A model generated the notes under the pieces. That model saw only the letters and a list, made by a program, of their open reading frames with translations, did not search any database and was not told where the DNA came from. Shown here piece by piece: positions 3,116-61,530 of a stretch of 64,000 nt of DNA. Source of the DNA: an uncultured Gemmatimonadales bacterium (GTDB lineage Bacteria; Gemmatimonadota; Gemmatimonadetes; Gemmatimonadales; GWC2-71-9); contig CAWJMT010000002.1 in assembly GCA_963844035.1 (NCBI GenBank), positions 25,780 to 89,779 on the forward strand, in the 5' to 3' direction. The position numbers and the translations under genes are program-made. Numbering within the stretch: position 1 is the stretch's first letter; every line of letters starts with the position of its first letter.

Positions 3116-3128
3116 GAGAGAGGCGTCT

Positions 3129-17275: not shown

Positions 17276-19890
<2,615 letters not shown>

Positions 19891-19894
<4 letters not shown>

Positions 19895-31866: not shown

Positions 31867-32891
31867 CCCTTACTGTCGAGCGGTTCTCCGGTCTCGGCGC
31901 CGAGTGGGACGCGTTCGTCCGCCTTGCGGAGGGAGGCACGCATTGCCACCTCTGGGGGTGGAAGGCGGTCATCGAGCGGGTGCTCGGTCACGAGTGCCAC
32001 TACCTGGCGGCTCGCTCTCCCGAGGGCAGGCTCGTGGGCGTGCTTCCGCTCGTCTGCGTGTCCAGCCGGTTGTTCGGGTCCTACCTCGTCTCGATGCCCT
32101 TTCTGAATTCCGGGGGCGCGCTGGGTAGCGACCGGGCGGTGCAGGCGCTGGTTGCTCGAGCTATCGAGCTCGCCAGGACCGACGGCGTCGAGTTGCTGGA
32201 AATCCGCAGCCGCACCCCGCTTCCGCTGGATCTTCCCGTGTCACATCGCAAGATCACAGTGGTCCGGGACCTCGTGCCCGGCGACCCGGTCCGGGTGTGG
32301 GAAAGCCTGCGGGCAAAGGTGCGCAGTCAAATCCGTCGCCCGCAGAAAGAGGGCATTCAGGTGCGGTTCGGCCCCGATCAGGTCGGCGCCTTCTTCCGGG
32401 TGTTCTCGCAGCACATGCGTGACCTCGGCACCCCGACGCAGCCCCGGCGCTTGTTCGACGCCTTGGTCGATGCGTTTCCGGCCGACGTCTGGTTCGGATG
32501 CGCGTATGACGGCACCCGCCCGATTGCGGCAGGGTGCGGGTTTCGCTGGAATGGTGAGTTCGAGATGACCTGGGCCTCGTCGCTGGCGCGGTACAACGCC
32601 ATCGCTCCCAACATGCTGCTCTACTGGGCGTTCATGGAGCGGGCCGCTGCGGATCGCCTTGAGGTCTTCAACTTCGGCCGCTGCACACCGGGCAGCGGCA
32701 CGCACCGGTTCAAGCAACAGTGGGGTGGACGGGACGTGCCCCTGTGGTGGTATCAGCGCACGGCGGGGCAACGCGCGGCAACCCCTTCGCCCGACGACAA
32801 AGCCTTCGCGTGGGGGCCGCGCATGTGGAAGCGGCTGCCGCTGCCCATCGCCAACATGCTGGGACCGCGCGTCGTGCGCCTGATCCCGTGA
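31863..32891 (+). CDS. FemAB-family protein (PEP-CTERM system-associated type)
   Basis: Intact 342 aa, directly after the deacetylase as in exosortase-type loci: HCHLWGWKAVIERVLGHE...GVLPL...LFGSYLVSMPFLNSGG. Confidence 0.8.
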   Translation: MTLTVERFSGLGAEWDAFVRLAEGGTHCHLWGWKAVIERVLGHECHYLAARSPEGRLVGVLPLVCVSSRLFGSYLVSMPFLNSGGALGSDRAVQALVARAIELARTDGVELLEIRSRTPLPLDLPVSHRKITVVRDLVPGDPVRVWESLRAKVRSQIRRPQKEGIQVRFGPDQVGAFFRVFSQHMRDLGTPTQPRRLFDALVDAFPADVWFGCAYDGTRPIAAGCGFRWNGEFEMTWASSLARYNAIAPNMLLYWAFMERAAADRLEVFNFGRCTPGSGTHRFKQQWGGRDVPLWWYQRTAGQRAATPSPDDKAFAWGPRMWKRLPLPIANMLGPRVVRLIP

Positions 32892-34099
32892 TGCTCCGGC
32901 ACCAGCTTCCCGCCTACTCGCCGCTCAGCGGCGCCTCCCTCGGGCGCGCGCTCCTGCATGCGTTCGGCCCCGGGATGGATGGACAGGCTGAGCTGACCGC
33001 GATGCTCGAGCGGGAATATCGCGCCGATCGGGCTCTGCTCCTTGGAAGCGGCACCCAGGCCCTGCAGGTCGCCATCGCGCTCGCCATGCGGCACGTGGGC
33101 GATGCGGTCGTTGCGCTTCCGGCGTTCAGCTGTTTTGACGTGGCGGCCGCGGCTGTAGGCGCGCACGCGAGGATCAAGTTCTACGATCTCGACCCGACCA
33201 CTCTGGCGCCCGACCCGCGGTCGTTGGAGAGCGCGCTGGCGAGGGGCGCTCGCGTTGCGGTCATCGCCCCGCTGTACGGTTTCCCGGTCGATTGGGACGC
33301 GCTCGCAGACTTGCTCGTCCGATACGGCGCCATGGCCGTCGAAGATGCGGCACAAGGCGATCACGCCGAATGGCGGGGCCGGAAGCTGGGGAGTCTCGGC
33401 CCGATCAGCGTGTTGAGCTTCGGGCGAGGGAAAGGGTGGACGGGCGGCAGTGGCGGGGCGCTCCTCATCCGGGATCAGGCACCGTGGCAGGGGTTGCGAG
33501 ACACACTGATGGAGATGTCGAGCGGGACAGGGACGTCTCGCTGAGGTTCGCGTCCTCGGCGCGCTGGCGGCCCAGTGGGCGCTCGGCCGGCCGGAGTGTT
33601 ACGCGATCCCGCGCGCGGTGCCGCGGCTCCAATTGGGCGAGACCGTATATCACGATCCCGTGCCGCCGCGAGGGATGACCCGTGCGGCCTCCGCGTGTCT
33701 CGCGGCCAACCGGCCAGCGGCCGCGGAGGAGGCGGCGACGCGGCGCGCGACGGCGCTGGCGTTGCTTGCAGCGATCGGCTCCGGACGCGGGTGCGAGCCA
33801 TTCGGCCGCTCGCGGGGGCGACACCCGGATTCTGCGGTTGCCGCTGCGGCTCGCGGTGGCTTTCGGGGGTTTGCGACCCCTGCGACCGCAGGCCGCCTGG
33901 GGATTGCGCCGAGCTACCCGTCGGTGCTCGGCGCCATCCCGGAGGTGCGTCCATGGATGGATGACGCAACGTCCCAGCTGGCCGGGAAGCGACGGAGCTG
34001 GTCCGCACGCTCTGCACGGTGCCGACGCACTCCCTTGTCACATTGGGAGAGCGTGCCCAGTTGATCCGCGAGATCGAAGCCTATGAGCAGCGGACATGA
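32891..34099 (+). CDS. DegT/DnrJ/EryC1/StrS family aminotransferase; at least 2 frameshifts
   Basis: GSGTQALQVAI, PAFSCFDVAAA, VIAPLYGFPVDWDAL, AVEDAAQG, VLSFGRGKGWTGGSGGALL. The C-terminus (...LVTLGERAQLIREIEAYEQRT) is in another frame. Confidence 0.8.
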
Positions 34100-37867: not shown

Positions 37868-39109
37868 GTGCCGATGAACGCTAGACCGCGGGTCATGGTG
37901 CTCTCGCAGTGTCTGCCGTATCCCCCGCAGAGCGGGGTTCGCACCCGGACGTTCAATATTCTTCGACAGCTCCAGCGCGAGTTCGACGTTACCGTGATCC
38001 CATTCTCTCGAGCCGTGCACCAGCCATCGGCTGCCGATCGGGAGGTTGGACGTGAAATGCTGGCGCGGGTGGTGACAGAGATCGCCGTTCCCGTGCCGAT
38101 CCCGAGCGAGCAGTCGGTAGCGCGGCGTGTGTGGGACCACCTGCGCAGCGTGCTGACGCACCGGCCGTACACCTCCTATGAGTACCGCAGTGGTGACTTC
38201 CGCCGGCAGCTGCGCGCGCTGCGGCGGCGCAGCCCACCGCAGCTGGTGCATCTGGACAGCTTCGATCTCACCGATTGGCTCGAGGAGCTGCCGGACGTTC
38301 CAGTGGCCTGTACCCACCACGACATCGAGCCGCTGTTGCTGAGGCTGCGGGCGACGCGGATGTCGCGGCTGGGAGTCGGTCCTTACTTGCGGCATCAAGC
38401 CGACCTGATGGAACAGCTCATGCGGGTGGCGTGTCCGGGATTCGATTTGAACGTCATGATGTCCGAATTGGACGCCGGCCGCCTCCGGGAAATCGCTCCG
38501 CAGTCGAAGACGCACGTGGCCCAGAACGGGGTGGACACGGATTACTTCCGTCCCATGCCGGAGGTACCGCCAATCCCGGGGCGTGTGCTGTTTCTCGGGC
38601 CCACGTATCAGTTCGCGAACCGGGACGCGGTCGAGCACCTGGTGGATGACATCCTCCCGGAGGTTCGATCCTGTTGCCCGACCGCGTCCGTCCAACTGGT
38701 GGGGCGGAACGCCGACGCGGACCGGAGGCGTTGGGAGAGCGTTGCGGGCGTCCGCTGCGCAGGGCAGGTGGAGGATGTGCGCCCGTTCCTGGCTGAGGCG
38801 CCATGCGTCGTCGTGCCCATTCGAGTGGGAGGCGGAACGCGTCTGAAGATCCTCGATGCCTGGGCGATGGGCAAAGCGGTGGTGTCAACCGCTACGGGGT
38901 GCGAGGGCCTGGATGTGGTGGATGGCGAGAACATTCTCATTCGCGACACTCCGCGATCATTCGCGGACGCCGTCTGCAACGTGCTGGAGGATCGCGCGCT
39001 ACGGGAGCGGCTGGGGTCGAATGCCCGCGCGACGGTGAGTGCGAAATACGCCTGGACCCGGGTGGGTCAGGAGCTGTGTGCCGCCTACCGGGGACTCGTG
39101 TCGGTCTGA
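37868..39109 (+). CDS. glycosyltransferase family 4 (resembles the PEP-CTERM/EpsH1-associated sugar transferase type)
   Basis: Intact 413 aa: RVMVLSQCLPYPPQSGVRTRTFNILRQL...; C-terminal VVPIRVGGGTRLKILDAWAMGKAVVST. Confidence 0.8.
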   Translation: MPMNARPRVMVLSQCLPYPPQSGVRTRTFNILRQLQREFDVTVIPFSRAVHQPSAADREVGREMLARVVTEIAVPVPIPSEQSVARRVWDHLRSVLTHRPYTSYEYRSGDFRRQLRALRRRSPPQLVHLDSFDLTDWLEELPDVPVACTHHDIEPLLLRLRATRMSRLGVGPYLRHQADLMEQLMRVACPGFDLNVMMSELDAGRLREIAPQSKTHVAQNGVDTDYFRPMPEVPPIPGRVLFLGPTYQFANRDAVEHLVDDILPEVRSCCPTASVQLVGRNADADRRRWESVAGVRCAGQVEDVRPFLAEAPCVVVPIRVGGGTRLKILDAWAMGKAVVSTATGCEGLDVVDGENILIRDTPRSFADAVCNVLEDRALRERLGSNARATVSAKYAWTRVGQELCAAYRGLVSV

Positions 39110-39250: not shown

Positions 39251-39340
39251 CGCTGCTCAGAGCAAAGCCGCTGAAAGGCGGTGACGCAGAGCCACGGGAC
39301 TACCGCGAGAGGCTTCGCCACGTCCGCCGGGCCGCCAGCG
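39251..39340 (+). promoter_or_regulatory. c-di-GMP-I (GEMM-I)-like riboswitch aptamer, copy 1
   Basis: CGCUGCUCAGAGCAAAGCCGCUGAAAGGCGGUGACGCAGAGCCACGGGACUACCGCGAG..UUCGCCACGUCCGCCGGGCCGCCAGCG. Has the GCAAA, GNRA-capped hairpin, GACGCAxAGCC, CGGG.CUA and GCCGGGCyGCC hallmarks. Confidence 0.75.
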
Positions 39341-39381
39341 ATCGACGAATGGGTCGACGTGGTGGGCCGGCGTTTTCATTT
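39327..39381 (+). terminator. intrinsic terminator/expression platform of riboswitch copy 1
   Basis: CCGGGCCGCCA (39327-37) pairs with UGGUGGGCCGG (39360-70) and is followed by CGUUUUCAUUU. The 5-prime arm overlaps the aptamer 3-prime end. Confidence 0.6.
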
Positions 39382-39401
39382 ATGGAGGGCGGAGCTAGAC
39401 G

Positions 39402-41908
39402 ATGACGTTCAAGTACAAGCTGTCGTGCCGCCTGGCTCTGCTCAGAGATGCCGCTGCCGCTGCTCGCGGCGGCCGCCCTGGTCGCATGCGAGATCCCCGT
39501 CGTCAGCAGTGATCCAGCTGTCTCAGTCGTCCAAGTCGTCGTCGTCCCCGAAAGCCTCAGTCTCGACGCAGCTCAACAACAGAAGTTCGCAGCCTATGGC
39601 CGTTCCGCGAGCGGTGACAGCTCCGCCGTCACCGTGACCTGGAGTGCGACCGGGGGCAGCATTACGTCCGACGGGATGTTCGCCGCCGACACGGCCGCCG
39701 GGGACTTCCTGGTGTCGGCGACCAACGCCGCGCTCAAGCTCTCGGGCTCGTCGCGGGTGCGCATCCGGCCGCGTCCGGTCGCGTCGGTGGCCGTGACGCC
39801 GGCATCGGCGAGTGTGGTGTGGCGCAGACGATCCAGCTCGCCGCCACCCCGCGCGATGCGAACGGCAACGACGCTGTCGGGCCGGGTGGTGACGTGGGGG
39901 AGCAGCAACGCGGCCGTCGCGACGGTGAGCGCGAGTGGGCTCGTGACCGGCGTCGCGGCCGGTGCGGCGACGATTACCGCCACGAGCGAGGGCAAGAGCG
40001 CCACGTGCGGCGGTGACGGTCACGCCGGCGCCGGTGGCGTCGGTGACCGTGAGCCCGACACTGGCAAGCGTGCCGGTGGGGCAGACGGTGCAGCTCACCG
40101 CGACGCCGCGGGATGCGAACGGGAACGCCCTGACGGGGCGGGTCGTGAGCTGGGCGAGCAACAACACGGGGGTGGCGACGGTGAGCGGGAGCGGGCTCGT
40201 GACCCCGGTCGCGGCCGGCTCGGCGATCATCACGGCGACGAGCGAGGGCAAGAACGGCACGGCCGGGATCACGGTGACGCTGACGCCGGCGGCCGTGGCG
40301 TCGGTGAGCGTGAGTCCGGCGTCGGCGAATGTGATCGCGGGGCAGACCGTGCAGCTCACCGCGACGCCGCGGGATGCGAGCGGCAACGCGCTGTCGGGCG
40401 CGTCGTGACCTGGAGCAGCAGCAACAGCGCCGTGGCGACGGTGAGTGGCAGCGGGCTCGTGACGGGCGTGGGCGCCGGGTCCGGCGACGATCACGGCGAC
40501 GAGCGAGGGTCAGAGCGGCACGGCGGCGATCACCGTGCGCCGGCGCCAGCGCCGGTGGCGTCGGTGAGCGTGAGTCCGGCGCCCGGCGAGCGTGACGGCC
40601 GGGCAGACGGTGCAGCTCACGGCGACGCCGCGGGATGCGAGCGGCAATGCCCTCACGGGACGCGTCGTGACGTGGGGCAGCAGCAACACGCGCTGTCGCG
40701 ACGGTGAACGGCAGCGGGCTGGTGAGCGGCGTCGCGGCCGGGTCGGCGACGATCACCGCGACGAGCGAGGGAAAGAGCGGCACGTCCCTGGTGACCGTGA
40801 CTCCGGTGCCGGTGGCGACGGTGAGCGTCAGCCCGGCCGCGCCGAGCGTGGCGGCGGGGCAAACGGTGCAGCTCACCGCGACGCCGCGGGACGCGAACGG
40901 GAACGCGCTCGACGGGCGGGTCGTGACCTGGGGGAGCAGCAACACGGCGCGTCGCTACGGTGAACGGCACGGGGCTTGTGACGGGGGTCGCGGCGGGGTC
41001 GGCGACGGTGACCGCTACCAGTGAAGGCAAGAGTGGCAGCGCCGCCGTGACGGTGACGGCGACGTCGGGTGGCGGGACCGTGCTGTTCGAGGAGCACTTC
41101 GAGGACAACTCGTTCGCGTCGCGCGGCTGGTATGACAACACCAGCCCGCCCACCACGACCGCGGAGCACGCGCCCGGCAGCAGTACGCGCGCCTTGCAGC
41201 TGCACTTCACCCAAGGCGCCACGACTGCGGTGTCCGGTGGCTCGGCGCGGCATTTGTTCACCGCCTCGTCCACGGTCTACATCAGTTATTGGGTGAAATA
41301 CAGCACCAACTGGGTCGGCTCGGGCGAGGCGTATCACCCGCACGAGATCATGCTCCTGAGCGATCAGGACGGGGCCTATGACGGTCCGTCGACCAGCTGG
41401 CTCGCCGCCTATGTCGAGCACAACTACCAGAACGGCGGCATTCCGCGCCTGGCGTTGCAAGACAGCAAGGCCATCAACACGATCCTTCGGCACGCCGCCG
41501 TTCAACTTGAGCGGCGTTACCGAAAACCGCTCGACCTGCGGCTGCAACGGCGTCGTGGAACCGAACGTCGTCACGAGCTGCTTCAGCTTTCCGCCCTGGT
41601 ACAACGACAAAGAGATCATCTCGCCGACGAAGATTGCGCCGACGGCGTGGCGGAATCAGTGGATCCACGTGGAGGCCTACTTCCAGCTGAACTCGGTCGT
41701 CGGCGGCATCGGCGTGCCCGACGGCGTGATGCAGTACTGGTTCAACGGGACGCTGATGATCGACCGGCACGACATCCTGATGCGCACCGGCGCGCGCCCG
41801 ACCCTGAAGTTCAACCAGTTCCTGATCGCGGCGTACATCGGCGACGGGTCGCCGGTGGACCAGTACATGTGGATTGACGACCTCACGGTGGCCACGGCGA
41901 AGCCGTAG
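39402..41908 (+). CDS. lipoprotein with about 6 Big_2 (bacterial Ig-like) repeats and a C-terminal jelly-roll polysaccharide-lyase-like domain (type A); at least 10 apparent frameshifts
   Basis: MTFKYKLSCRLALLR... then ...LVACEIP lipobox. Repeats follow the pattern VSPAsAsV.aGQTVQLTATPRDAnGNALtGRVVTWgSSNtaVATVsgSGLVTGVAAGSATITATSEGKSGTAaVTV. The C-terminus runs LFEEHFEDNSFASRGWYDN...YHPHEIMLLSDQDG...WIHVEAYFQLNS...QYWFNGTLMIDRHD...WIDDLTVA. Confidence 0.75.
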
Positions 41909-41955
41909 CCGGAGGTCGGAAAGAGCAGGACGCAGGCGACAACTGATTCGACATA

Positions 41956-42045
41956 CGCTGCTCAGAGCAAAACCGCCGAAAGGCGGTGACGCAGAGCCAC
42001 GGGACTACGGCGAGTTCGCTCGCTACGTCCGCCGGGCCGCCAGCG
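41956..42045 (+). promoter_or_regulatory. c-di-GMP-I (GEMM-I)-like riboswitch aptamer, copy 2
   Basis: CGCUGCUCAGAGCAAAACCGCCGAAAGGCGGUGACGCAGAGCCACGGGACUACGGCGAGUUCGCUCGCUACGUCCGCCGGGCCGCCAGCG. Confidence 0.75.
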
Positions 42046-42083
42046 ATCCCCCGGGGTCGATACTGGCGGCCCGTTCGTTTTGG
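42034..42083 (+). terminator. intrinsic terminator/expression platform of riboswitch copy 2
   Basis: GGGCCGCCAG (42034-43) is perfectly complementary to CUGGCGGCCC (42063-72) and is followed by GUUCGUUUUGG. Confidence 0.65.
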
Positions 42084-42115
42084 CCGAACTGAAGCGAGAG
42101 GGAGAGACGAGTTTC

Positions 42116-44714
42116 ATGACATTCCTGCACAAGCTGGCACAGCGCCTGGCTCGACTGAAGACGGCCCTCATCGTGGGTGTCGTCGCGGCGATCGCGTGCG
42201 AGATACCGTTGCCGGTGGACCCATCAGGCACCATCGCGATGCTACTCGTCTCGCCCAAGGCGGTGACCACCCGCGCCGGGCAGATGGCGGATTTCGTGGT
42301 CGTCGGTCTGACCACCAGCGGTGACACGGCCAGCGTCCCCGTGACCTGGAGTGTCACCGGGGGGACGATGGTCGACACGAGCACGCAACGGCGGCAAGCA
42401 CTTCGGCAAGTACAAGGCGCCAATGTCCCCAGGGCGTTACAAGGTCGTGGCCCAGTCCGGCGGCGTCGCGGACTCCGCAGTCGTCGACGTGAGCGCTGTG
42501 CCCGTGGCGACGGTGAGCGTCAGTCCCGCGTCGGCCAGTGCGACGGTGGGACAGACGGTGCAGTTGACGGCGACGACGCGCGACTCCACCGGTGCCTCGC
42601 TGAGCGGCCGAATTGTGACGTGGGCGAGCAGCAACTCCGGTGTGGCGACGGTGAGCGCCAGCGGGTTGGTGACCGGCGTCGCGGCCGGCGCAGCGACGAT
42701 TACCGCCACGAGCGAGGGCAAGAGCGGAACCGCGGCGGTGACCATCACGCCGCCGCCGGTGGCGTCGGTGATCGTGAGCCCGGCGGCCGTGAGCGCCGCC
42801 CTAGGCCAGACGGCCCAGTTCACGGTCACGGCTGGAAGATGCGAGCGGGAACGTCCTGACGGGGCGGGCGGTGAGCTGGACGAGCAGCAACACGGGGGTG
42901 GCGACGGTGAGCGGTAGCGGGCTCGTGACCCCGGTCGCGGCCGGCTTGGCGATCATCACGGCGACGAGCGAGGGCAAGAACGGCACGGCGGGGATCACGG
43001 TGACGCTGACGCCGGCGGCGGTGGCGTCGGTGAGCGTGAGCCCGGCGTCCGCGAATGTGATCGCGGGGCAGACGCTGCAGCTCACCGCGACGGTGCGGGA
43101 TGCGAGCGGGAACGTGCTGCTAGGGCGCGTGGTGACGTGGGCCAGCGACGACGCCGGAACGGCGACGGTGAATGGCAGCGGGGTGGTGACGGGCGTTGAC
43201 GCGGGCACGGCGACGATTACGGCGACGAGCGAAGGCCAGAGCGGCTCGGCGGCCGTCACGGTCACCGTACCGGTGGCCACGGTGAGCGTGAGTCCCGCGT
43301 CCGCGAGCGTGATCGCGGGGCAGACGGTGCAGCTGACCGCGACGCCGCGCGATGCGAACGGGAACGTGCTGACGGGGCGCGTGGTGACGTGGGCCAGCAG
43401 CAACACCGGGCGGGCGACGGTGAATGGCAGTGGGCTCGTGACGGGCGTGAGCACCGGGACGGTGACGATCACGGCCACGAGCGAGGGGAAGAGCGGGACG
43501 GCGGCGCTGACGGTGACGCCGGTGCCAGTCGCCACCGTGACGGTCAGCCCGGCGACGCCCAGCGTGTCGGTCGGGCAGATGGTGCAGCTGACGGCCACGA
43601 CCAGGGATGGCAACGGCAACGTGTTGACCGGCCGCGTCATCACGTGGTCGAGCAACGCCCTTGGGACCGCCACGGTGAGCGGCAGCGGGCTGGTGACGGG
43701 TGTCGCTGCCGGCCCGGTCACGATCACGGCGACGAGTGAGGGGCAGAGTGGCTCGTCGGCCGTCACCGTCACGCCGCCGGCGCCCGTCGCCACGGTGAGC
43801 CTGAACCCGGCGACGCCCAGCGTGGCGGCGGGGCAGACGGTGCAGCTGACCGCGACACTCAGGGATGCCCTCGGCAACCCGCTGACCGGCCGCGTCATCA
43901 CGTGGTCGAGCAGCGCTGTGGGGACCGCGACGGTGAGCGGCAGCGGGTTGGTGACGGGCGTCGCCGTCGGGTTGGCGACGATCACGGCGACGAGCGAAGG
44001 CCGGAGCGGCACGGCCGCGGTGACGGTGGTGACCCCGCCGCCGCCCGGCACCACGTGGCCGAACGAGCCGGCGGGCTTTACGACCGTCACCGATTTCGGC
44101 TTCAACAATTTCAGCTCGGGCGGCTGGCAGACGAATTCCGGGCCGACCATCGCGACGGACTCAGTGCTCCGATCTCGCCGTCCACCGTCGCCCAGTGGTT
44201 CTATCGGCAGGGGTTTGGGGCCGGCGCATCGCCGGGCACGGTGTTTAACACCTCGTCGGTTGCGGGGGATCATTTCATCGGCTACGAGTTCAAGTACTCG
44301 AATCCCTACAGCAACCAGGCGGTGGGGACCAAGCAGTGGTATCCCTACAATCACGACCGCGGACTACTTCGTGCTCTTCAACAGTAGCTCGAAAATCCAG
44401 GTGGACCTGCAGGTGCCGGCGGCGCAGGGTGGGAGCTACAACCTGTACCGCCAATGTGAACGATCCGACGATCACGCTCGGCGTGTGGCACAAGTTTGAG
44501 ATGTACTTCAAGCGCTCGAGCAGTCCGACGACGGCGGATGGTATCGTGCGGTGGTGGATCGACGGGCAGCTGTGCGGCAACTACACGAACGTGAGGTGGC
44601 CGAGCACTGGGTTCGACGAATTGCGGTTCTGCGCCGACGTGGGGCGGGATCGGTGGCAGCGTGGCGTTCGACAGCTACTGGTGGGTCGATCACATCCACG
44701 TGAGCGAGCCGTAG
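42116..44714 (+). CDS. lipoprotein with about 7 Big_2 repeats and a C-terminal jelly-roll polysaccharide-lyase-like domain (type B); several frameshifts
   Basis: MTFLHKLAQRLARLK...AIACEIP lipobox. The 542-aa ORF 42871..44499 is almost all Big_2 repeats. The C-terminus runs WPNEPAGFTTVTDFGFNNFSSGGW...FKYSNPYSNQAVGTKQWYP...VWHKFEMYFKRSS..GIVRWWIDGQL...WVDHIHVSEP. Confidence 0.75.
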
Positions 44715-44956
44715 AGCTCCACCTGTGTGAGCCACCGCACACGGAAGACTGGTCAGACAAAAGCGCAAGTACACCAGAATGCAGCGAGCACAGGTGTAGC
44801 GCGTCGACGCAACTCTCGCTCTTGTCGACGGGTAGGTTGCACCACTTGTGCGGGTCACGAGCTCCTACTAGTCTGTCGTCCGTTGAATGTGCGCGGCAAT
44901 TTGTAGCCAGCACGCCTCGCGCGAAAATGGTTGTCGCACCCCGCTGAAACCAGCAC

Positions 44957-45044
44957 AGCTGACAAGAGCAAATCCGTCGAAAGACGGTGACGCAGAGCTA
45001 CGGGACTAACGCGAGCTTCTCGCCACGTCCGCCGGGCCGCCAGC
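44957..45044 (+). promoter_or_regulatory. c-di-GMP-I (GEMM-I)-like riboswitch aptamer, copy 3 (first of a tandem pair)
   Basis: AGCUGACAAGAGCAAAUCCGUCGAAAGACGGUGACGCAGAGCUACGGGACUAACGCGAGCUUCUCGCCACGUCCGCCGGGCCGCCAGC. Confidence 0.72.
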
Positions 45045-45085
45045 ACATCGAGAAGTCATCGAGCTGGCGGCCGTTTCGTTTGTGG
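45035..45085 (+). terminator. intrinsic terminator/expression platform of riboswitch copy 3
   Basis: GGCCGCCAGC (45035-44) is perfectly complementary to GCUGGCGGCC (45063-72) and is followed by GUUUCGUUUGUGG. Confidence 0.65.
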
Positions 45086-45162
45086 AAGTAGTGGTGCTGT
45101 TCTGTTGTTCTGTTGTTCTGTCGCTAACACGTCTGTTCGGAAGGATCGCCCCTCCCCAAGAG

Positions 45163-45262
45163 GAGTGCGACAAGGGCATAGCCGGCGAAAGCCGGTGACG
45201 CAAAGCCCCGAGGCTACCGCGCGGATCAGCCGCGTCACGCCAGTCGAGCTGCCGAACCTCAC
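45163..45262 (+). promoter_or_regulatory. c-di-GMP-I (GEMM-I)-like riboswitch aptamer, copy 4 (divergent; second of the tandem pair; no obvious terminator)
   Basis: GGGCAUAGCCGGCGAAAGCCGGUGACGCAAAGCCCCGAGGCUACCGCGCGGAUCAGCCGCGUCACGCCAGUCGAGCUGCC. Ends about 24 nt before the ATG at 45286, next to the GAGGGG Shine-Dalgarno sequence. Confidence 0.55.
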
Positions 45263-45285
45263 TCTCCAGTCTCGAGGGGCGTACA

Positions 45286-48200
45286 ATGACGTCCACAAGT
45301 CGGTTGTCGATCCGACTGGCCATGGCCAGTCGCGCAACGGTAGTACTCAGCGCCGTCGCCAGCATGGCATGCGGTTTGGGGGATCCCTCAAGCAGCGTGT
45401 CCAGCAGGCCGACGTTCGCCACGCCTGGTGCAGCACCAGCCACGGTCTTGTTACAGGAATCCTTTGAGGATAACGCGTTTGCGTCGCGCGGCTGGTACGA
45501 CAATGCAAACCTAGCGACCACGACGGCCCAGCACGTCCCCGGGAGTACGCGCGCCCTGGAAGCTCACTTCACCCCCGGTGCGACCACGCCCACCTGGGGC
45601 GGCGCGGCGCGCCACCTGTTCACGCCGACCCCTACGCTGTATGTCAGCTATTGGGTCAAGTACAGCACCAATTGGGTGGGCTCGGGCCGCTCGTACCACC
45701 CGCACGAGTTCCTGGTGCTGAGCGATCAGGACGGCGATTGGGATGGCCCGTCGAACAACTGGCTGACGTTCTATGTCGAGCACAACTACCAGAACGGCGG
45801 CATCCCGCGGTTGGCGCTTGCAGGACAACAAGGCGATCAACACGACCTTGGGTGCCCTGCCACTGAACCTGGTCGAGCGCGACGGAGAATCGCTCGACCG
45901 CAGGGTGCAACGGCGTGGTGGAGCGAATGTCGTCACGACCTGCTTCAACATGCCGCCCTGGTACAACGACAAGGAGATACCGCCGCCCAGGTCGCGTTCC
46001 AGCCCAACCCTGGTCCAGGTTACAAGAGGCGACTGGAATCATGTCGAAGTCTATGCTCAACTGAACTCAGTGTCGGCGGGGATCGGCCAGGCCGACGGTG
46101 TATTGCAGTATTGGTTCAACGGCACGCTCGTGATCGACCGGCACGACATGCTGTTCCGCACTGGCGCGCGTCCCAATATCCAATTCCGCCAGTTCCTGAT
46201 CGCGCCGTACATCGGCGATGGCTCGCCGGTCGATCAGTACGCCTGGTTCGACGACCTCACCGTCGCCTCGGGGCAGATCGCCGGCGTCCCGAGTCCGTCG
46301 GTCTCGTTGGTGACGATCAATCCCGCCGTAGTCAGCGTAGTCGTCGTGCGGCACGACCCAGCTGGCGGCGACGGTCAATGATTCGGCCGGAAGCGCATTG
46401 GCCGGGCGTGCTTCCACGTGGGTGAGCAGTGCGCCCGCGGTTGCGACGGTGAGCGCGAGCGGGCTCGTGACGGGGATCGCCGCCGGGTCGGCACGATCAC
46501 GGCGACGAGCGAGGGGAAGAGTGCGACGGCGAGCCTCACGGCGACCAGCACCGCCACGAACCCGGGAACGGTGACCGACCTGAAGGTCGCGAGCGTGACG
46601 AACAACTCGGTGAGACGCTCACGTTCACCGAGGTGAACGACGGCAGCGGCAATCCGGCGAGTTACGACATCCGCGGGGCGGCCGGGACATTCGCGTGGGG
46701 GCTCGGCGGTCTCGGTATCGCAGGGCACGTGTGCGACGCCCGTGGCCGGGACGGCGATTGGCGCGGCGCGGAGCTGTACGCGCTCGGCTCGTCCCGCGAC
46801 CGCGTACCAGTTCCAGCTGGTGCCCTCCGGGACGCTCAACGTGAACGCGACGTTCGGCGCGCTCTCGAACGTGGCGAGTGGGACGACCGCTACGGGACCC
46901 GGGGCACCGCTGCCGGCGCTGGTGGCGACCGTGAGCGTGACTCCCGCCGCGGCAAACGTCACCGTTGGGTAGGGTCCCGTCAACTCGCGGCGACACCGGC
47001 CCAGCGGGGGCAGCGTGCTGACCGGCCGCACGGTCACGTGGGCGAGCAGTGCGCCCGGTGTGGCGACGGTGGACGCGGTGGCCGGTTACAGGACTCACGG
47101 CCCGCGCAGCACCATCACGGCCACGAGTGAAGGGAAGAGCGGGAGCGCCGCGATCGCCGTCGCCAGCGTCCCTGTGGCCACGGTGACGTGTGACTCCCTC
47201 GAGCGGGAGTGTCATGGTGGGGAGCACGCAGCAGTTCACGGCGACTCTCAAGGATGCGGGCGGCGTGACGCTCACCGGGCGGACGGTTGTGTGGGCGAGT
47301 AGTACACCCGCGGTTGCGACGGTGAGCGCGAGCGGGCTCGTGACAGGGATCGCCGCCGGGTCGACCACGATCACGGCGACGACCGAAGGGAAGAGTGCGA
47401 CGGCGAGCATAACGGTGACCAGCACCGCCACGAAACCGGGCGCGGTGACCGACCTGAAGGTCGCGAGCGTGACGAACAACTCGGTGACGCTCACGTTCAC
47501 CGAGGTGAACGACGGCAGCGGCAATCCGGCGAGTTACGACATCCGCGGGGCGGCCGGGACATTCGCGTGGTGGTCGGCGGTCTCGGTATCGCAGGGCACG
47601 TGTGCGGCGCCCGTGGCTGGCACGGCGATTGGGGCGAAGCGGAGTTGTACGGTGCTGGGGTTGAATGCGGCCACGGCCTACCAGTTTCAGCTGGTGGCAT
47701 TACGGGGGACGCTCAACGTGAACGCGACGTTCGGCGCGTTGTCGAACGTGGCGAGTGGGACGACCGTGACGGGACCCGGGGTGCCTCCGCCTCCGCCTCC
47801 AGCGCCGGTGGCGACCGTGAGCGTGACTCCAGCCGCGGCGAGCGTCACGGTTGGTGGGGACGGTGGCGCTGGCGGTAGCTTCTACGCGATGCCAGCGGGA
47901 ACGTGCTCGTCGGGCCGCGGGGTCACGTGGTCGTCCAATGCGCTCAGCGTGGCGACCGTGAACGTGAACGGGCTCGCGACGGCGCTGGTCGTCGGCTCGG
48001 CCGCGATCACGGCGACGAGCGAAGGCCAGAGCGGCACGGCCGCAGTGACCGGGCTGACCTCACCACCTCCACCCGCGGGCGGGGCGTGGGCGAATGAGCC
48101 GACCGGCTTTACGACGGTGACCGATTTCGGCTTCGACAACTTCAGTTCGGGCGGCTGGCGTACGAATTCCGGGCCGACCATTACGACGGATGCGAGTGCC

Positions 48201-48749
48201 CTGGTGTCGCCGTCGAACGTGGCCCAGTGGCGGTATCCGCAGGGGTTCGCCGCCGGCGCCTCGCCTGGGGACGGTCTACTACGGTCCGACCACGCCGGTC
48301 ACGGATCATTTCATTGCCTATGACTTCAAGTACTCGAATCCCTACAGCAACCAGGCGGTGGGGACCAAGCAGTGGTATCCCACAATGCGACGGCGGACTA
48401 CTTCGTGCTGTTCAACAGCAGCTCGAAGATCCAGGTGGACCTACAGGTGCCGGCGGCGCAGGGCGGGAGCTACAACCTGTATGCCAACGTGAACGATCCG
48501 ACGATTACGCTCGGTGTGTGGCACAAGTTTGAGATGTACTTCAAGCGCTCGAGCACTCCGACGACGGCGGATGGGATCGTGCGGTGGTGGATCGATGGGC
48601 AGTTGTGCGGCAGCTTCCACACGAACGTGAGATGGCCGAGCACTGGGTTCGACGAATTGCGGTTCTCACCGACGTGGGGAGGGTCGGCGGCAGCGTCGCG
48701 TTCAACAGCTTCTGGTGGGTCGATCACATTCACGTCAGCAAGGCCGTAG
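45286..48749 (+). CDS. large modular lipoprotein: N-terminal type-A lyase-like domain, Big_2 and FN3-like repeats, C-terminal type-B lyase-like domain; many frameshifts
   Basis: MTSTSRLSIRLAMASRATVVLSAVASMACG lipobox. The type-A domain (LQESFEDNAFASRGWYDN...YHPHEFLVLSDQDG...WFDDLTVA) is followed by Big_2 units, an FN3-like unit (PGTVTDLKVASVTNNSVTLTFTEVNDGSGNPASYDIR) present twice, and a type-B C-terminus (WANEPTGFTTVTDFGFDNFSSGGW...WVDHIHVS). Confidence 0.7.
46434..46965 (+). repeat. copy 1 of an about 870-bp-period internal duplication (Big_2 + FN3 module) in the 45286 gene
   Basis: Long near-identical nucleotide runs shared with 47307-47850, for example gtgagcgcgagcgggctcgtgac.gggatcgccgccgggtcg and ttcaccgaggtgaacgacggcagcggcaatccggcgagttacgacatccgcggggcggccgggacattcgcgtgg. 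Confidence 0.85.
47307..47850 (+). repeat. copy 2 of the internal duplication
   Basis: Offset of 873 nt from copy 1 (cccgcggttgcgacggtgagcgcgagcggg at 46434 and at 47307). Confidence 0.85.
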
Positions 48750-48794
48750 GGTTCAAGGCCCCTGCCGTAATGAGGGGGAGGGGTTTCTCTGGGA

Positions 48795-48826
48795 GGGCTG
48801 CCGCCCGGAGCGTTGGGCGGCGGCCC
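48795..48826 (+). terminator. GC-rich hairpin after the 45286 gene (terminator candidate without a clear U-tract)
   Basis: GGGCUGCCGCCC (48795-806), loop ggagcguu, GGGCGGCGGCCC (48815-826): 12 bp including one G-U pair. Confidence 0.4.
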
Positions 48827-48884
48827 GCCAAGAACGTCAAAAGTGTTGACCGTACCGGACCGCGGTGAAACATTAGGGGCGCGG

Positions 48885-49701
48885 ATGAGCCGGTTTGTGT
48901 GGTCGCACTCGCTGCGGACGAGGGTATCCCTCGTTCTCTTGTCAGGCCTCGTGCCACTCGCATGCGGCCCGTCGTCAGACTCGGATGGACCGTGGCCGAA
49001 CGAGCCCCGGGGCTACACCGTGTACTCCGACTGGGCGATGGATTCCGCGCCCCCCGCCAACATCCCCGACGGGCCTATCCGGGCACCAGCACCTGGCGTG
49101 CCCGAACAGGTCTGCCGGGGGACCCCGACGGCTGGATCGAGCTCGCTGCGGATGCAAGCGGTGCTCATTCGGCCACGGCCGTGTATCAGTTCGCGTACCC
49201 GACCGGGATGCGAGACGGTGCGGGTCCCGGGCAGATTTGGAGTGCCCTCCCCAATTTCAACCGCGTGTACGTTGGCTTTTGGTGGAAGCTGTCCGATCCG
49301 TGGCAGTATCACGACGTCGGCGATAAGCTCGGCTATTTGTGGGCCGGCAGCAGCAACATGTTCCTGATTCAGTATGGCAGTCCCCCCAGTCTGCGCTGCG
49401 TATGTGCAGTTCTTCGGTCTCTCAATGGCTCTATCCGAACGTCAACTCCACGACCGTCACTCGCGGCGTGTGGCATCGCGTCGAGCTCTTCGCTCAGTAC
49501 ATCCCGGGACAGAAGGGTCGCGTGAAATGGTGGCTCGACGGCGTGCTGCAGGGGGACTACGGGACGTGGTCTGCCGGCGCCATCCCCGGACAGTTCACTG
49601 AGTTGTCGTTTCGATCCGGTGCTGGGGCGGTAACAGACGGCTCAGTGAAGGGCGAGACGGATTACTTCTGGTTCGACGACATCCACATCAGCGGCCAGTA
49701 A
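48885..49701 (+). CDS. stand-alone type-B lyase-like jelly-roll lipoprotein; at least 2 frameshifts
   Basis: MSRFVWSHSLRTRVSLVLLSGLVPLACG lipobox; GPWPNEPRGYTVYSDWAMD; YQFAYPTGMRDGAGPGQIW...FWWKLSDPW; VWHRVELFAQYIPGQKGRVKWWLDGVL...YFWFDDIHISGQ. Confidence 0.65.
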
Positions 49702-51047
49702 CGTCCGGTGCGCCGGTCGCGTGACTTTGCGCAGCGCGATCGCGAGGGCGAGCAAGGCGTAGAGCATCCCTCGTGGTAGGCGGCGAGCGAAAGAACGCAC
49801 CGACGGCAAAGCCCAGCAGCGACGCAGCCAGCGCTTGTGGGCGAGGGCTCCCGCTCCGTTTGCGTGCATGGCGCGATCGCCGGGCGATCTCCCTGAGGGC
49901 TCGCCACGCCGTGGCGAGCATCAAGACAAACCACAAGAGACCTGGCACGCCGAGCTCTGCCCCAACCTGTACGTACGTGTTGTGCGCGGCGCTTCACTGA
50001 TCCGATCCCGGCGTTCTTGACGGGCTGCGAGAGGAGAATCGCGCCTTCAGCGACCGGGAAGTTATCGGCGCCGACGCGGGCTCCAAGGAATGGGTGTTGT
50101 CCATGTACCTGATGACCGCGCTTCCAGATGGCAACGCGTCCGCGTTCTTCGTTTCGTTGTAGTCCTCCTCGGAGTCGAAGATCGTGCTCATCTGAGTCCA
50201 GTATCGGTCGCTCGCGATTGCGAGGAACACCGCCGCGACGACCGCGACACCGAGCACGCGCCAGCGAATCGGGATCGTCGAGGTAGCGGAATAGGATGAA
50301 CAGCGCGACCGGCACCAAGGCGATGAAGCTCCCACGGGAGCCCGACCAAATGAATCCGACAATGAGCGCGCCCACGCCTGCGGCCGCGAGCAGCCGATTG
50401 AGAAGGGCTCGTCGCGCCAGCGTGAAGTACAAGCCGAGGGGCAGGGCGGTAACCACGAGGGTCGCGAAGTCGTTGGCGTCATAGTAATAGATGGTGCCGA
50501 GCCGCCAGGATGCTCCCCCGACATCGAAGCGAAGCAAGACCACCAGCGCGTACAATGCCGCGCCGGCGAAGTACATGAATGCCAGGCGCTCGACGTCCTT
50601 CGTATTCCGCACCGCTCCCACGATGAGTAGGTAGAGAATCACGGTCTTGATAAAGCGGTCCGTGAGGAGGTCGAATACGGCCCCGGGATACAGGGCACCA
50701 GGAATCGAAAGCGCGATCCACAACAGCAGTACCAGGAGGTACTTCGTCGTGGGCGCGAACAGCAGACCCAAACGCCGCGCCCCCGTGTGGTGGAGCGCGT
50801 ACAGGCAGATCGCGGCGGCTCCGCTGACAAGGGGCAACTTGACCAGCGTCAGGATGGGGAAGAGCTCGTGGATGCGACCGACGGCCGTGAGGAGGTGAAG
50901 GGCGATACAAACGAGCAGCAAGTCCCAAGCGCGGTCGCGGGCCTGGGGTATGGCGGGGCTCGGACTGGGCCTAACCTGCGGTCCAGGCCCCGCCGAGTGG
51001 GTGACGCCCGACATCGGACCTACCGCAAGCGTGCGACTAGCGTGCAA
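49688..51047 (-). CDS. O-antigen ligase/polymerase-like (Wzy_C) polytopic membrane protein; several frameshifts; 3-prime end uncertain
   Basis: Multiple TM helices (LLLVCIALHLLTAVGRI, YLLVLLLWIALSIPGALY, LYALVVLL), IWSGSRGSFIAL, and HNTYVQVGAELGVPGLLWFVLML by conceptual translation in the frame of ORF 49688..49948 (the listed ORF starts at MPGLLWFVLML). Confidence 0.65.
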
Positions 51048-52060
51048 GGATGCCTTCCGTCGTGCGCAGGGGCGCTATCACGGGCGTCGGACGCACGGGC
51101 GCCTCTTGGACCGTCACCGCCTGCTCGGCCGCCGCCAGGCAGGCGGCGGAGAGCGTCGCATCGTAGCGACGCGGACGGAGGATTGCCCAGGCGGCAAGCG
51201 GCTCCGGCAAGCGGCCACGCGCGGCAGCCAGCGCGAAGCGCGCCATCTGCAGTGCCGTCGCGATCAGGCTGATCGGGACCCACACAAGACGGCTGCGCCA
51301 CCCACGTGCGCGGAACGCATCGCGCAGGTTTCCCCTCGTTGCGATCGTGGGATCGAAGAGATTCAACACCGGAGGCGCCTGCTCGAATTCCGTGGCACAC
51401 CACGCGATCACTCCCGCGGCGCGCCCGACCTCGCAGGCTGCGAACGGCAGGCCGGGCCGCCCGAGCGCCAGATGCCAGGGACCGAAGAGACGGCGTCCCA
51501 CCAGTCCCGGAAGCTCGATGTGCTCCCAGTCGATCAACGCGCCCGGCCGGACGATTCGCGCGTCGATTGCTCCCGCGCGTTGCGCCGCCGTGACGACCTG
51601 CTCGGCGGTGCACTTGCCCCACGTGTAGGGTCCGAGCGTCTCCGATTTGGAGGCCACGGGCGTCCGTTCGTCCTGCCGTTCCCACGGGCTGTGGGGCGGC
51701 TCGAGCACTGAGAGACTGCTCACCAGCACGAGGTGGCGAACCCGTGCGGCAGCCATCGCGCCTACAAGGTTCTTGGTGGCGTCAACGGTATTCTTGCGAT
51801 GAGCGTCGATACCAGCTGCAGTCTCGGCGGCTGCGTGAACGACCACCGCTACGCCGTTGAGCGCGCCATCCGGGTACGCCCCGACTGAGATCGCCGCGGA
51901 TCCACTCGGCGAGGTGCGGGTTGTCGGGCGTCTCCGAGCGCCCGATGCCGCGAACCCGCCAGCCGCGCCGCGCGAGCTGCGCGACGATCTCGCGGCCAAG
52001 AAATCCGCTGGCTCCTGTCACCAACGCGAGCGGACGCTCTGCCGTGCGGCCCGACTTTCG
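51037..52060 (-). CDS. NAD-dependent epimerase/dehydratase (SDR) domain, in frame with the upstream Gfo/Idh/MocA region; frameshift near 51850-51990
   Basis: Rossmann motif ALVTGASGFLGREIVAQLARRGWRVRGIGR in ORF 51782..52588. The rest (VVVHAAAE...YTWGKCTAE...) is in ORF 51037..51999. Confidence 0.7.
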
Positions 52061-53126
52061 TGCGATGAGCGTGGCCGGCGAGGGCACCTGGTGGCGCACT
52101 GCGGTTACCAGCTCCTCGTAGATCTTGACGACGCGGTGCAGCTGGTCCGCGGGCACGGGAGACCTGCCCTCACCTCGCGATACCGCCCCGTAGAACGCGT
52201 CGAACAAGCCGGCGAGCCCAGCGTACCCCGCGCCGCGCTGAAAGCGTCGCGCGAGACTCGCGATCGACCGCCCGAACAGCTGTGTTGCTTCGACCAGCGG
52301 ATTCCCGAGTTTTTCGAGCGGCGACGTACCGTCATTGCCGGCGCCGATCACCATTCCCCGCACGAAGTCGGCCGTAACGGCGCCCCCACAGCCGGTAATC
52401 GTGAGCGAGGATGCCACTGGGCGCGCGCGCAAGCTGATCAACAATCGAGCGGTGACAGTCGGCCTGGCGCAGCAGCACGTGGAGCTCGATGGGGGTGGCG
52501 AGTACGGAAACGACCTCAGGGGTCGAACCGGCGGGAGCGACCCGTTCGAGCGCAGCGAGGAGCGTGTACAGGGGATGCGGCAGGACATCGAGCAGCTGGG
52601 CCGCCAGCGCGCGGACGCTAGCGCGATGGAGCGTCAGCGTGGGCGATCGGAACGCGAAGTAGCTGTCCACCCCAACGATGGGTCCGAGCGCGGCCGGCTT
52701 GGGTGAGCGCCTGCTCGAACGCGGGGTCGCGAAGCAGCTGGTGACCAGGACACACGAGGAGGCGTCGTTCCTGCGCCAGACGGAGCAGCTCGTCCGCCTC
52801 GGCTTCCGTCTCGACGAACGGCTTCTCGACGTAGACGTGGGCGCCGCCGAGCAGTGCTTGCCGCGCAACGTCGAAATGCGTCCCGGCCGGCGTGCAGATG
52901 TGCACGACATCAGGCTTACCCTCCGAGAGCAGCGCCGCCACCGTGCGGGTAGGGCGCGGCGTCGGCCCCGGCCTCGCGCGCGAAGTCGCCCGCCGCGGCG
53001 CGCGCTCACATCGCAGACCCCTGTGACGCGGTGACCGGTCGGCACGTGCCTCAGTGCCTGCAGATGGACGCGGGCCATGGCCCCCGCCCCGACAAAGGCA
53101 ATCCGCAGCTCGGTTCGGTTCGACAC
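52061..53126 (-). CDS. Gfo/Idh/MocA family oxidoreductase domain; frameshifted; no stop before the epimerase domain
   Basis: LRIAFVGAGAMARVHLQAL (ORF 52332..53183), PDVVHICTPAGTHFDVARQALLGGAHVYVEKPF (ORF 52618..52941), and a C-terminal part in ORFs 52332 and 51782. Confidence 0.7.
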
Positions 53127-61383: not shown

Positions 61384-61530
61384 CGAGTGCCCGCGACGGT
61401 CGTGGAGGACGCAGCCCCCTGCCGTCCCGATGAGAGGTGTGTAATCTTCTTGCGCGCCACAACACCCAACGTGACGCACGGCGCGACGTGCTCGGGGCTG
61501 AGGCCTCATCCTTGCAGACGAGGTGTTGGA

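Follow-up and report, generated by a model that had tools for sequence, protein, structure and literature searches.

What is encoded by the four lipoprotein genes that sit in the middle of an exopolysaccharide (EPS) locus of an uncultured soil Gemmatimonadales bacterium, what signal controls them, and do they form a working module or a relic? The block in question occupies positions 39251–49701 of a 64,000-nt stretch of contig CAWJMT010000002.1 (assembly GCA_963844035.1), hereafter ‘the window’. Its proteins carry head domains of two types, here termed type A and type B, on stalks of immunoglobulin (Ig)-like Big_2 and fn3 repeats, and its leaders carry aptamers of two classes, termed A and G after the base at the ligand-reading position. 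We consider it fairly probable that the block represents a conserved Gemmatimonadota module in which a Wzy-type EPS locus is combined with four Ig-stalked, lyase-like lipoproteins, gated by ON riboswitches, that remodel the polymer of the flanking genes, and that the many frameshifts of the window copy are likely consensus errors.

A cmscan search of the window against Rfam 15 returned exactly four matches at the gathering threshold, all to RF01051 (c-di-GMP-I, or GEMM-I; gathering score 35 bits), all on the forward strand and all within the block (Table 1), and the last two (3a and 3b), separated by 120 nt, lie in tandem ahead of gene 3. In the numbering of the Vc2 aptamer, cyclic di-GMP (c-di-GMP) is contacted by G20 (Hoogsteen to G-alpha), A47 (intercalation) and C92 (Watson–Crick with G-beta), the first of which, at Rfam model position 11, reads the ligand's alpha base. 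All four window aptamers show the three-helix architecture with its GAAA tetraloop and have both A47 and C92, and at model position 11 aptamers 1, 2 and 3a carry an A and only 3b a G. The c-di-GMP-specific pocket (G20, A47, C92) is complete in one of the four, and the other three combine an A at the G20 equivalent with a retained C92, as the GEMM-Ib variants do. A sequence-only reading of this DNA had assigned c-di-GMP riboswitch-like leaders to three of the four genes: the three genes stand, but the aptamers number four and three of them have A20.

These aptamers belong to a larger population. A scan of 185,579 species-representative genomes of the GTDB with a type-A profile and a two-peptide pattern yielded 52 loci (the type-A-seeded set), and a covariance model built from the four window aptamers, run over these loci and two extra ones, found 46 further aptamers. 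In the alignment of the resulting 50 related sequences the helices P1a, P2 and P3 are supported by covariation: 92.1% of cells pair and double changes occur at 16 of the 22 pairs, values reached by none of 500 shuffles, with slid controls giving 17–44% paired. The sequences fall into class A (CGCUGCUCAG-A-GCAAA...GACGCAGAGCC...GCCGCCAGC) and class G (GCGCGACAAA-G-GCAAA...GACGCAAAGCC...AGUCGAGCCGCCGAA), where the hyphenated base is model position 11. In the type-A-seeded set, in which this base was not selected, it is A in all 34 class-A aptamers (three from the window and 31 others); it is also A in 77 aptamers of a second, aptamer-seeded set described below, where the search pattern itself fixes it. 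We note two further class differences. At a second position near the pocket, class A reads GACGC-A-G-AGC and class G GACGC-A-A-AGC, which places a G after the intercalating A47 in class A; and in the first P2 pair (columns 45/109 of the aptamer alignment) the 3' base is C in class A where class G has U.

The two classes are coupled to different expression platforms. In 33 type-A-seeded leaders all class-A aptamers are followed by a hairpin that reuses GCCGCCAGC and then a U-run, and the second of the three such hairpins in the window was called by a terminator scan as well. A terminator thus competes with the aptamer's 3' strand, as in pilM, a documented ON switch in which aptamer and terminator exclude each other (PMC9262584). 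Since the terminator reuses that strand, ligand binding should prevent termination, and class-A leaders should be transcriptional ON switches. Class-G aptamers end 10–30 nt ahead of the start codon, and 20 leaders (3b and 19 others) share a four-strand design, CCUCU ... AGAGGGA (P1 5') – aptamer – GCCGAA-CCUC (P1 3' = anti-Shine–Dalgarno) ... GGAGGGG (Shine–Dalgarno, SD) ... AUG, with a matching GAGGGA 5' strand. As the 3' strand of P1 is here the anti-SD, a ligand-stabilised P1 should release the SD, which would make class-G leaders translational ON switches; gene 3, which carries a class-A terminator switch as well as a class-G SD switch, would therefore be gated twice. A promoter scan gave nothing above chance.

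Beyond these two classes, a third GEMM-I subclass with G20 (CUCCGAAAA...ACCGAA) was seen in five loci (L025:437-528(-), L031:1002-1091(-), L028:9240-9333, L034:6660-6753 and L039:3086-3181). Here the 3' strand of P1 is itself the SD (GAGGAG), with the AUG 6–8 nt later, and a translational OFF switch is therefore predicted. The gene that follows encodes a conserved 365-aa secreted protein in three of these loci and a protein resembling a receiver domain in the remaining two.

Taken as a mechanism, the module would work as follows. Each lipoprotein would present one or two lyase-like jelly rolls on a Big_2/fn3 stalk; genes 1, 2 and 3 would each be held off by a class-A aptamer and terminator until ligand permitted transcription, and gene 3 would in addition need its class-G switch to permit translation, both switches having to be on. 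Gene 4 has no aptamer of its own and probably shares the transcript of gene 3. When cyclic dinucleotide levels rise, the cell would then display glycan-cleaving, or at least glycan-binding, heads, by which the acidic polymer that the flanking genes produce could be trimmed, released or remodelled; we infer both that the heads are exposed at the surface and that they act on the cell's own EPS.

Table 1. Features of the lipoprotein block and its two flanking genes, in window coordinates.
Feature	Position	Strand	Remarks
Riboswitch 1, A20-class GEMM-I aptamer	39251..39339	+	RF01051 57.7 bits, E 1.2e-8
Terminator hairpin 1 + U-run	39325..39382	+	5' arm = aptamer 3' strand (CCGCCGGGCCGCCAGC); -36.3 kcal/mol, z -3.7, then UUUUCAUUU
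Gene 1 lipoprotein (MTFKYKLSCRLALL...LVAC)	39402..41908	+	~5 Big_2 + C-terminal type A (~41060-41905)
Riboswitch 2, A20-class GEMM-I aptamer	41956..42044	+	RF01051 65.0 bits, E 1.9e-10
Terminator hairpin 2 + U-run	42033..42083	+	overlaps aptamer 2's 3' strand; centroid -33.2 kcal/mol, then GUUCGUUUUGG
Gene 2 lipoprotein (MTFLHKLAQRLARL...AIAC)	42116..44714	+	~6 Big_2 + C-terminal type B (~44040-44711)
Riboswitch 3a, A20-class, first of tandem	44957..45044	+	RF01051 62.9 bits, E 6.2e-10
Terminator hairpin 3a + U-run	45035..45083	+	overlaps aptamer 3a's 3' strand; -28 kcal/mol, then GUUUCGUUUGUGG
Riboswitch 3b, G20-class, second of tandem	45165..45256	+	RF01051 66.6 bits, E 7.4e-11
3b translational platform	45257..45288	+	CCUCACUCUCC (P1 3' strand/anti-SD), SD GAGGGG 45274-45279, ATG 45286
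Gene 3 lipoprotein (...VASMAC)	45286..48749	+	ortholog in the syntenic locus L052 has the same A...B architecture
Gene 4 short lipoprotein (...VPLAC)	48885..49701	+	divergent type B only; no own riboswitch
GT4-type glycosyltransferase, upstream flank, intact	37868..39109	+	Pfam Glyco_trans_1_4 1.9e-21, Glyco_transf_4
Wzy / O-antigen-ligase-like polymerase gene, downstream flank	49662..51047	-	ortholog has Wzy_C match

The link between aptamer and protein family holds well outside the window. All 52 type-A-seeded loci come from metagenome-assembled genomes (MAGs), almost all of Gemmatimonadota, and the two-peptide-pattern scan of GTDB representatives turned up no obvious cultured host. The homologs there co-occur with RF01051-type aptamers in 24 loci, an association for which the sequence-only reading had called for just such a neighbourhood survey. 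An aptamer lies directly upstream of 26 of the 79 type-A or type-B genes with usable upstream sequence, and most of the genes without one are downstream members of same-strand arrays. Seen from the RNA side, nearly all class-A aptamers in these loci have a gene for a type-A, type-B or Big_2 lipoprotein immediately 3' of them, and the seemingly orphan aptamers precede the same MTFLHKLAQRLA... lipoproteins, which there extend past the contig ends.

The second set was seeded from the RNA: metagenome contigs scanned with a 20-nt class-A-only pattern gave more than 120 loci; in the 80 of these that were retrieved, the covariance model identified leaders of type A (66), AG (10), AA (2), AAA (1), GA (1) and GG (1). 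Downstream, the ORFs (open reading frames) encode long lipoproteins rich in Big_2; of those that are complete, eleven have type A or type B at the C-terminus, and other heads on the same stalk are a right-handed beta-helix (L068, L075, L128), a PLC-like Phosphoesterase (L066) and a Metallophos domain (L089). Because a scan for the aptamer alone finds Big_2 lipoproteins with such varied heads, we read the class-A aptamer as the mark of a regulon of Ig-stalked surface proteins whose heads are exchangeable and mostly enzyme-like, and the sibling heads suggest that type A and type B are themselves enzyme heads. Over both sets (more than 130 loci) the tandem order is A-then-G in 17 of 22 leaders and G-then-A in one. 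One locus may carry a triple class-A leader (L094:730-1099).

The question of most interest is which dinucleotide the class-A leaders sense. Riboswitches for cyclic AMP–GMP (cGAMP) have an A at position 20 (PMC6140456), A20G turns Gmet_0970 from cGAMP to c-di-GMP selectivity (PMC6456294), and among Desulfobacca aptamers the preference is predicted by G versus A at this position (PMC9481103). By comparison with these, the class-G pocket (G20, A47, C92) would be that for c-di-GMP and the class-A pocket (A20, A47, C92) of the type that accepts 3',3'-cGAMP, and the in vitro affinity of class-A aptamers for cGAMP should be no lower than that for c-di-GMP. Because the three terminator-type aptamers of the window carry this cGAMP-defining A20 pocket, c-di-GMP is not a safe ligand call for them. 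That cGAMP is the physiological ligand of A20 aptamers is a tentative proposal only, and several observations weigh against it. A20 alone does not make an aptamer cGAMP-selective: Vc2 G20A and Cbe 1-2 have affinity for both ligands (PMC6140456). The roughly 1.1 Mb of fetched Gemmatimonadota DNA holds three genuine GGDEF genes, all canonical (D at the PleD-D344 position), and a tblastn search of it with a GGDEF consensus found no cGAMP synthase, in a sample far too small to exclude one; the window has no GGDEF gene. One locus (L128) places a canonical GGDEF gene (10004-10477) about 500 nt upstream of a class-A riboswitch (11003-11095) that controls a Big_2 and beta-helix lipoprotein, an adjacency that slightly favours c-di-GMP as the class-A physiological ligand.

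A serious contender, only somewhat short of an even chance, is that all four aptamers sense c-di-GMP alone, A20 tuning affinity (nM rather than pM) for a kinetically controlled terminator and the tandem sharpening the response. The bispecific Vc2 G20A still binds c-di-GMP at 53 nM (and cGAMP at 120 nM; PMC6140456), homotypic c-di-GMP-I doublets (347) and triplets (12) are common and make responses more digital (PMC9481103), the only GGDEF genes among the fetched loci are canonical, one of them adjoining a class-A leader, and in the searchable literature we found nothing that links Gemmatimonadota to GEMM-I riboswitches, Hypr GGDEF enzymes or cGAMP. Against affinity tuning stand the constancy of A20 in 111 of 111 class-A aptamers (34 unselected, 77 pattern-fixed) where the neighbouring class keeps G, the fixed order of 17 A-then-G leaders to one G-then-A, which suggests non-redundant inputs, and the finding that a single A-to-G change flips the specificity of Gmet_0970 (PMC6456294). 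The most ambitious combination of these elements makes A20 aptamers cGAMP sensors, G20 aptamers c-di-GMP sensors and the A-then-G leader an AND gate in which cGAMP admits transcription and c-di-GMP translation, and would extend riboswitch-based cGAMP signalling from Geobacter-type Deltaproteobacteria to soil Gemmatimonadota, with a new regulon of Ig-stalked surface enzymes that includes two lyase families acting on the cell's own EPS; we regard that whole as doubtful for now.

As for the proteins, the Big_2 and FN3 repeats proposed from the sequence alone are above gathering score in Pfam: Big_2 (PF02368) scores 198 bits over five stretches on one window fragment and fn3 (PF00041) 31.9 bits, and the orthologs in the syntenic locus L052 have one, six and five Big_2 stretches plus fn3. 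The proposed lipoboxes are likewise present, as ...ALVAC and ...AAIAC (each followed by E) and ...ASMAC and ...VPLAC (each followed by G); this is pattern-level evidence, and the Cys is conserved in the homologs P0001, P0031, P0057 and P0078 and in all four L052 orthologs.

The heads have no family in either Pfam or NCBIfam: nothing reached threshold on the type-A and type-B window copies, and no Pfam domain spans the type-A region of the homologs, nor does NCBIfam match it. Type A is about 280 aa long and has 913 homologs at E<=1e-3, of which the best 120 are 59–80% identical. In an alignment of 56 homologs (60–96% identical to the first row) 56 columns are invariant, with polar residues (R, H, E, Y, Q, D, K) in many of them and with the stretches Y-H-P-H-E, Y-x-E-x-x-Y-Q-N-G-G, T-E-x-R-S-x-x-G-C-N-G and D-R-H-D; candidate catalytic residues lie in Y-H-P-H-E, Y-x-E-x-x-Y, Q-D and R-H-D. 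Type B (about 230–300 aa, 64 homologs) is more diverse, with very few invariant residues and an invariant Lys as its catalytic candidate. The two were described in the sequence-only reading as unrelated jelly rolls, a view that we rejected on the strength of an hhalign comparison (probability 98.2%, E 4.6e-14): they are two branches of one superfamily.

Because sequence searches gave nothing at threshold for the window copies, the fold assignment rests on AlphaFold2 (AF2) models and Foldseek. The type-A model is a beta-sandwich (predicted local distance difference test, pLDDT, 84.5; predicted template-modelling score, pTM, 0.86) whose top matches in the Protein Data Bank (PDB) are Aly36B (polysaccharide lyase family PL36, E 3e-10), vAL-1 (PL14, TM 0.57/0.65) and the T. 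reesei glucuronan lyase (PL20), with TtX122 domains and Aplysia PL14 also matched; the type-B model (pLDDT 85.7) has Aly36B, 2zzj and vAL-1 at its top, and over both models the top matches 6kcv/6kcw, 2zzj and 3a0n/3gne range from E 3e-10 to 1e-7. At the sequence level a type-A hidden Markov model (HMM) searched against PDB sequences reaches Aly36B at a marginal E of 0.009, and PF21294 (PL14) scores 37.1 bits against a cut-off of 27 on the type B of the L052 gene 3, over profile positions 139–190 of 215 only. The jelly-roll, polysaccharide-lyase-like fold proposed from the sequence is thus supported by the models for both domains. Several points temper the lyase reading: the Foldseek TM scores are only 0.43–0.58 (0.43–0.65 for the top matches to both models), lectins and toxin receptor-binding domains are found further down the lists, the lyase profile PF14099, which had been proposed as a check alongside Big_2 and fn3, falls just short on its best window copy (gene 4; 29.5 bits against 29.9), and the catalytic residues named above are candidates only.

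A second alternative, which we consider unlikely, is that the proteins are adhesins or lectins whose non-catalytic carbohydrate-binding heads, on an intimin/invasin-like stalk, would hold the cell to a surface or to its own EPS once cyclic dinucleotide levels rise. Matches to Big_1, Big_2 and Invasin_D3 are typical of adhesins, the lectins in the Foldseek lists include Emp47p, ERGIC-53 and legume lectins beside the toxin domains, the scarcity of invariant residues in type B would fit, and riboswitch-controlled adhesins are known for both c-di-GMP-I and c-di-GMP-II (PMC9481103). Yet lyases are the best structural and sequence matches for both heads, the charged and aromatic residues of type A are conserved in an enzyme-like manner across a family of 913 detected homologs, and clear enzyme domains (Phosphoesterase, Metallophos, beta-helix) occur on the same stalk in siblings governed by the same riboswitch.

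The placement of the block bears on the substrate. As described from the sequence, it lies between a glycosyltransferase (GT) gene, which is intact and of the GT4 type, and an O-antigen-ligase-like gene. The latter has at least four frameshifts in its 3' half (49662-50300 region) and its window copy has no Pfam match; an ortholog (L011:10048-11511) matches Wzy_C at 2e-23, and orthologs hold the same relative position in L004, L005, L009, L011 and L036. The upstream side comprises a polysaccharide deacetylase, an Acetyltransf_6/FemAB-like gene, DegT and two GT4 genes, and the Wzy-like gene is followed downstream by an NAD-epimerase/dehydratase, AsnB and a GT2 gene. When these window genes were compared with the homolog loci by tblastn, orthologs were found next to the module in 13 other loci: the Wzy-like gene and epimerase as a pair, downstream on the opposite strand, in L004, L005 and L011; the Wzy-like gene alone in that position in L009 and L036; the deacetylase/acetyltransferase/DegT set, whole or partial, in L002, L022, L025 and L031. 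Orthologs of the GT4 flank adjoin the module in L036 and L052. The G+C content of the block (0.63–0.71) is similar to that of its surroundings (about 67% for the window), there are no flanking repeats or integrase, and EPS synteny is conserved; an insertion by a mobile element was rejected on these grounds. At the far end of the EPS region (60581-62484, reverse strand) a YcaO-domain ORF and a truncated AMP-binding ORF may form a unit for a ribosomally synthesised and post-translationally modified peptide (RiPP-like) or another small biosynthetic unit.

The EPS link has its own weak side, since the 13 loci with window EPS orthologs within 6 kb are set in a total of 54 and many homologs lie outside recognisable EPS loci. 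One could suppose that the enzymes are for foraging on foreign polysaccharides, for instance uronic-acid polymers of algae, fungi or bacteria, and that their position in an EPS locus is incidental: most homolog loci have none of the window's EPS genes within 6 kb, the nearest relatives by structure are lyases of alginate and glucuronan with a nutritional role, and one type-A homolog (P0078, in L001:3291-10113) stands beside a divergent SusD/RagB and TonB-dependent-receptor pair (SusC/SusD-like), in what looks like a polysaccharide-utilisation context, with no riboswitch upstream although there is a 375-nt gap there. Against this stands the recurrence of the Wzy and epimerase pair or the deacetylase/acetyltransferase/DegT synteny in 13 loci, and control by a biofilm-type second messenger rather than a substrate sensor argues for a role in lifestyle; we hold foraging to be distinctly unlikely.

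There remains the state of the window copy. The proposal of four same-strand lipoproteins holds in L052, yet none of the four genes is an ORF in the window, where Big_2 and jelly-roll peptides switch frames. Traced by tblastn with intact homologs, gene 1 follows the frame path 2>0>1>2>0>1 (at least five changes) and gene 2 the path 1>2>0>2>0>1>2 (six changes), gene 4 has two changes, and gene 3 at least ten (at least seven by tblastn and three more within 45900-46060, 160 nt), its natural TAG stop being lost through one extra G; at least 22 changes by tblastn and the three in gene 3 make at least 25 in 10.3 kb. A Viterbi frame model based on G+C at third codon positions (GC3) was discarded as too crude, Big_2 repeats appearing coding on both strands. 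Alignment of 92%-identical type-B copies shows isolated 1-nt indels. Once stitched, gene 1 is 79% identical to P0001 across its N-terminus and type A, gene 3 reads type A (~45430-46275), Big_2, fn3, Big_2, fn3, Big_2 and type B (~48070-48745), and the stitched type A shares all 80 columns that are invariant in a 20-sequence homolog alignment; the aptamers and terminators are fully preserved. Within gene 3 we observe a tandem duplication of about 873 nt, a Big_2 and fn3 unit (46390-47260 vs 47262-48135, 89–99% identity), which could be recent or an assembly artefact; the L052 ortholog has a single fn3 to the window's two.

In L052, on a 1.16-Mb contig of a Gemmatimonadales MAG, the syntenic locus has all four genes intact, in the order aptamer and 698-aa lipoprotein (Ig and type A); aptamer and 907-aa lipoprotein (2622-5345; six Big_2 and type B), the gene 2 ortholog; triple aptamer and 1176-aa lipoprotein (5806-9336; type A, Big_2, fn3, Big_2 and type B), the gene 3 ortholog; 303-aa lipoprotein (9585-10496; type B), the gene 4 ortholog; and, on the opposite strand, a GT4 gene. 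The triple leader before the gene 3 ortholog (L052:5398-5830) reads A, A, G. Because this locus is intact, we take the four-gene model to be correct as a concept, after conceptual repair. The frame changes are not confined to the block, as the genes for a thiamine pyrophosphate (TPP) enzyme (22205-24426), DegT (32720-33544), the epimerase (51037-52588), AsnB (55871-57337) and the Wzy-like protein are also split or truncated, and indels are concentrated in the 22–62 kb EPS region, densest at 39.4–50.3 kb. As type-A conservation is kept and the aptamers and terminators are pristine, the frameshifts most likely arose as consensus errors where the metagenome assembly is rich in repeats and varies between strains; on the other side of the balance, the housekeeping genes at 0–21 kb are intact, and a regional concentration of frameshifts is also what real gene decay would produce. 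The least probable alternative, a decaying pseudogene array that works only in relatives such as L052, could appeal to the 25 or more frame changes and to the intactness, in the same window, of FtsK, RecA and AlaRS (2.5, 1.1 and 2.6 kb; 12390-19894), a polyprenyl synthase and the two GT4 genes, one of them adjacent to the block, but it must contend with the unbroken type-A columns, the lack of in-frame nonsense codons seen in the correct frames, indels of 1 nt that are locally paired, preserved aptamers and terminators, and a set of split neighbours that fits poor consensus over a strain-variable EPS island, and we judge it very improbable.

Gemmatimonadota are abundant in soils and, to our knowledge, their signalling and surface biology are almost unstudied. 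The leaders described here, dozens of them before one modular surface-protein family, make a cyclic-dinucleotide regulon of this phylum readable from sequence, and type A, with its many detected homologs, and type B are good candidates for new polysaccharide-lyase families. Should the A20 aptamers indeed sense cGAMP, they would be the first riboswitch evidence for cGAMP signalling beyond the Geobacter lineage, and the A-then-G leader would be a natural cGAMP-AND-c-di-GMP gate, a kind absent from the published tandem-riboswitch catalogue. In keeping with the earlier impression that the combination is not a described system, we found no description of this module in the searchable literature.

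Its parts nonetheless have close relatives. The aptamers resemble Vc2-type c-di-GMP-I riboswitches in their RF01051 scores, three helices, GAAA tetraloop, A47 and C92, and in the G20 of 3b, and differ from them by A20 in three of the four window copies; a Gemmatimonadota host and Ig-stalked lyase-like lipoproteins are not among the associations that we found described for c-di-GMP-I. With the Geobacter GEMM-Ib riboswitches (Gs1761/pgcA, Gmet_0970, pilM) they share A20, C92, the mutually exclusive terminator of an ON switch, frequent tandems and the control of extracellular or surface functions, including polysaccharide genes, but the phylum is another and there are further sequence differences, such as GACGCAGAGC here instead of GACGCAAAGC. 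Like the tandem logic gates and the c-di-GMP-I doublets and triplets (Sherlock et al. 2022), among them the triple tandem of B. thuringiensis, the leaders combine two or three aptamers each with its own platform, whereas the window pair is heterotypic (an A20 terminator switch, then a G20 switch that sequesters the SD) and its order is fixed across many genomes; a c-AMP-GMP/c-di-GMP pair is absent from the published logic-gate table (PMC9481103).

The heads compare best with PL36 Aly36B, the PL20 glucuronan lyase of T. reesei, PL14 vAL-1 and AkAly30 of Aplysia, and TtX122 of Teredinibacter, their best Foldseek matches, and are similar to them in size (about 230–280 residues), but identity is 9–17%, the window heads are fused to lipoprotein signals and long Big_2/fn3 stalks, and neither type belongs to a CAZy, Pfam or NCBIfam family. 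Riboswitch-controlled adhesins (COG4932 behind c-di-GMP-II tandems, the collagen-adhesion protein of B. thuringiensis) likewise place a repeat-rich surface protein under a second-messenger riboswitch, often in tandem; the window proteins differ in their enzyme-like heads and in lipobox rather than sortase/LPXTG anchoring. The riboswitch family, its A20 variant, its tandems and riboswitch control of surface proteins are thus already known; what is new, as far as can be told, is a phylum-specific regulon, two lyase-like families on Ig stalks, and a fixed tandem of an A20 terminator switch and a G20 translational switch.

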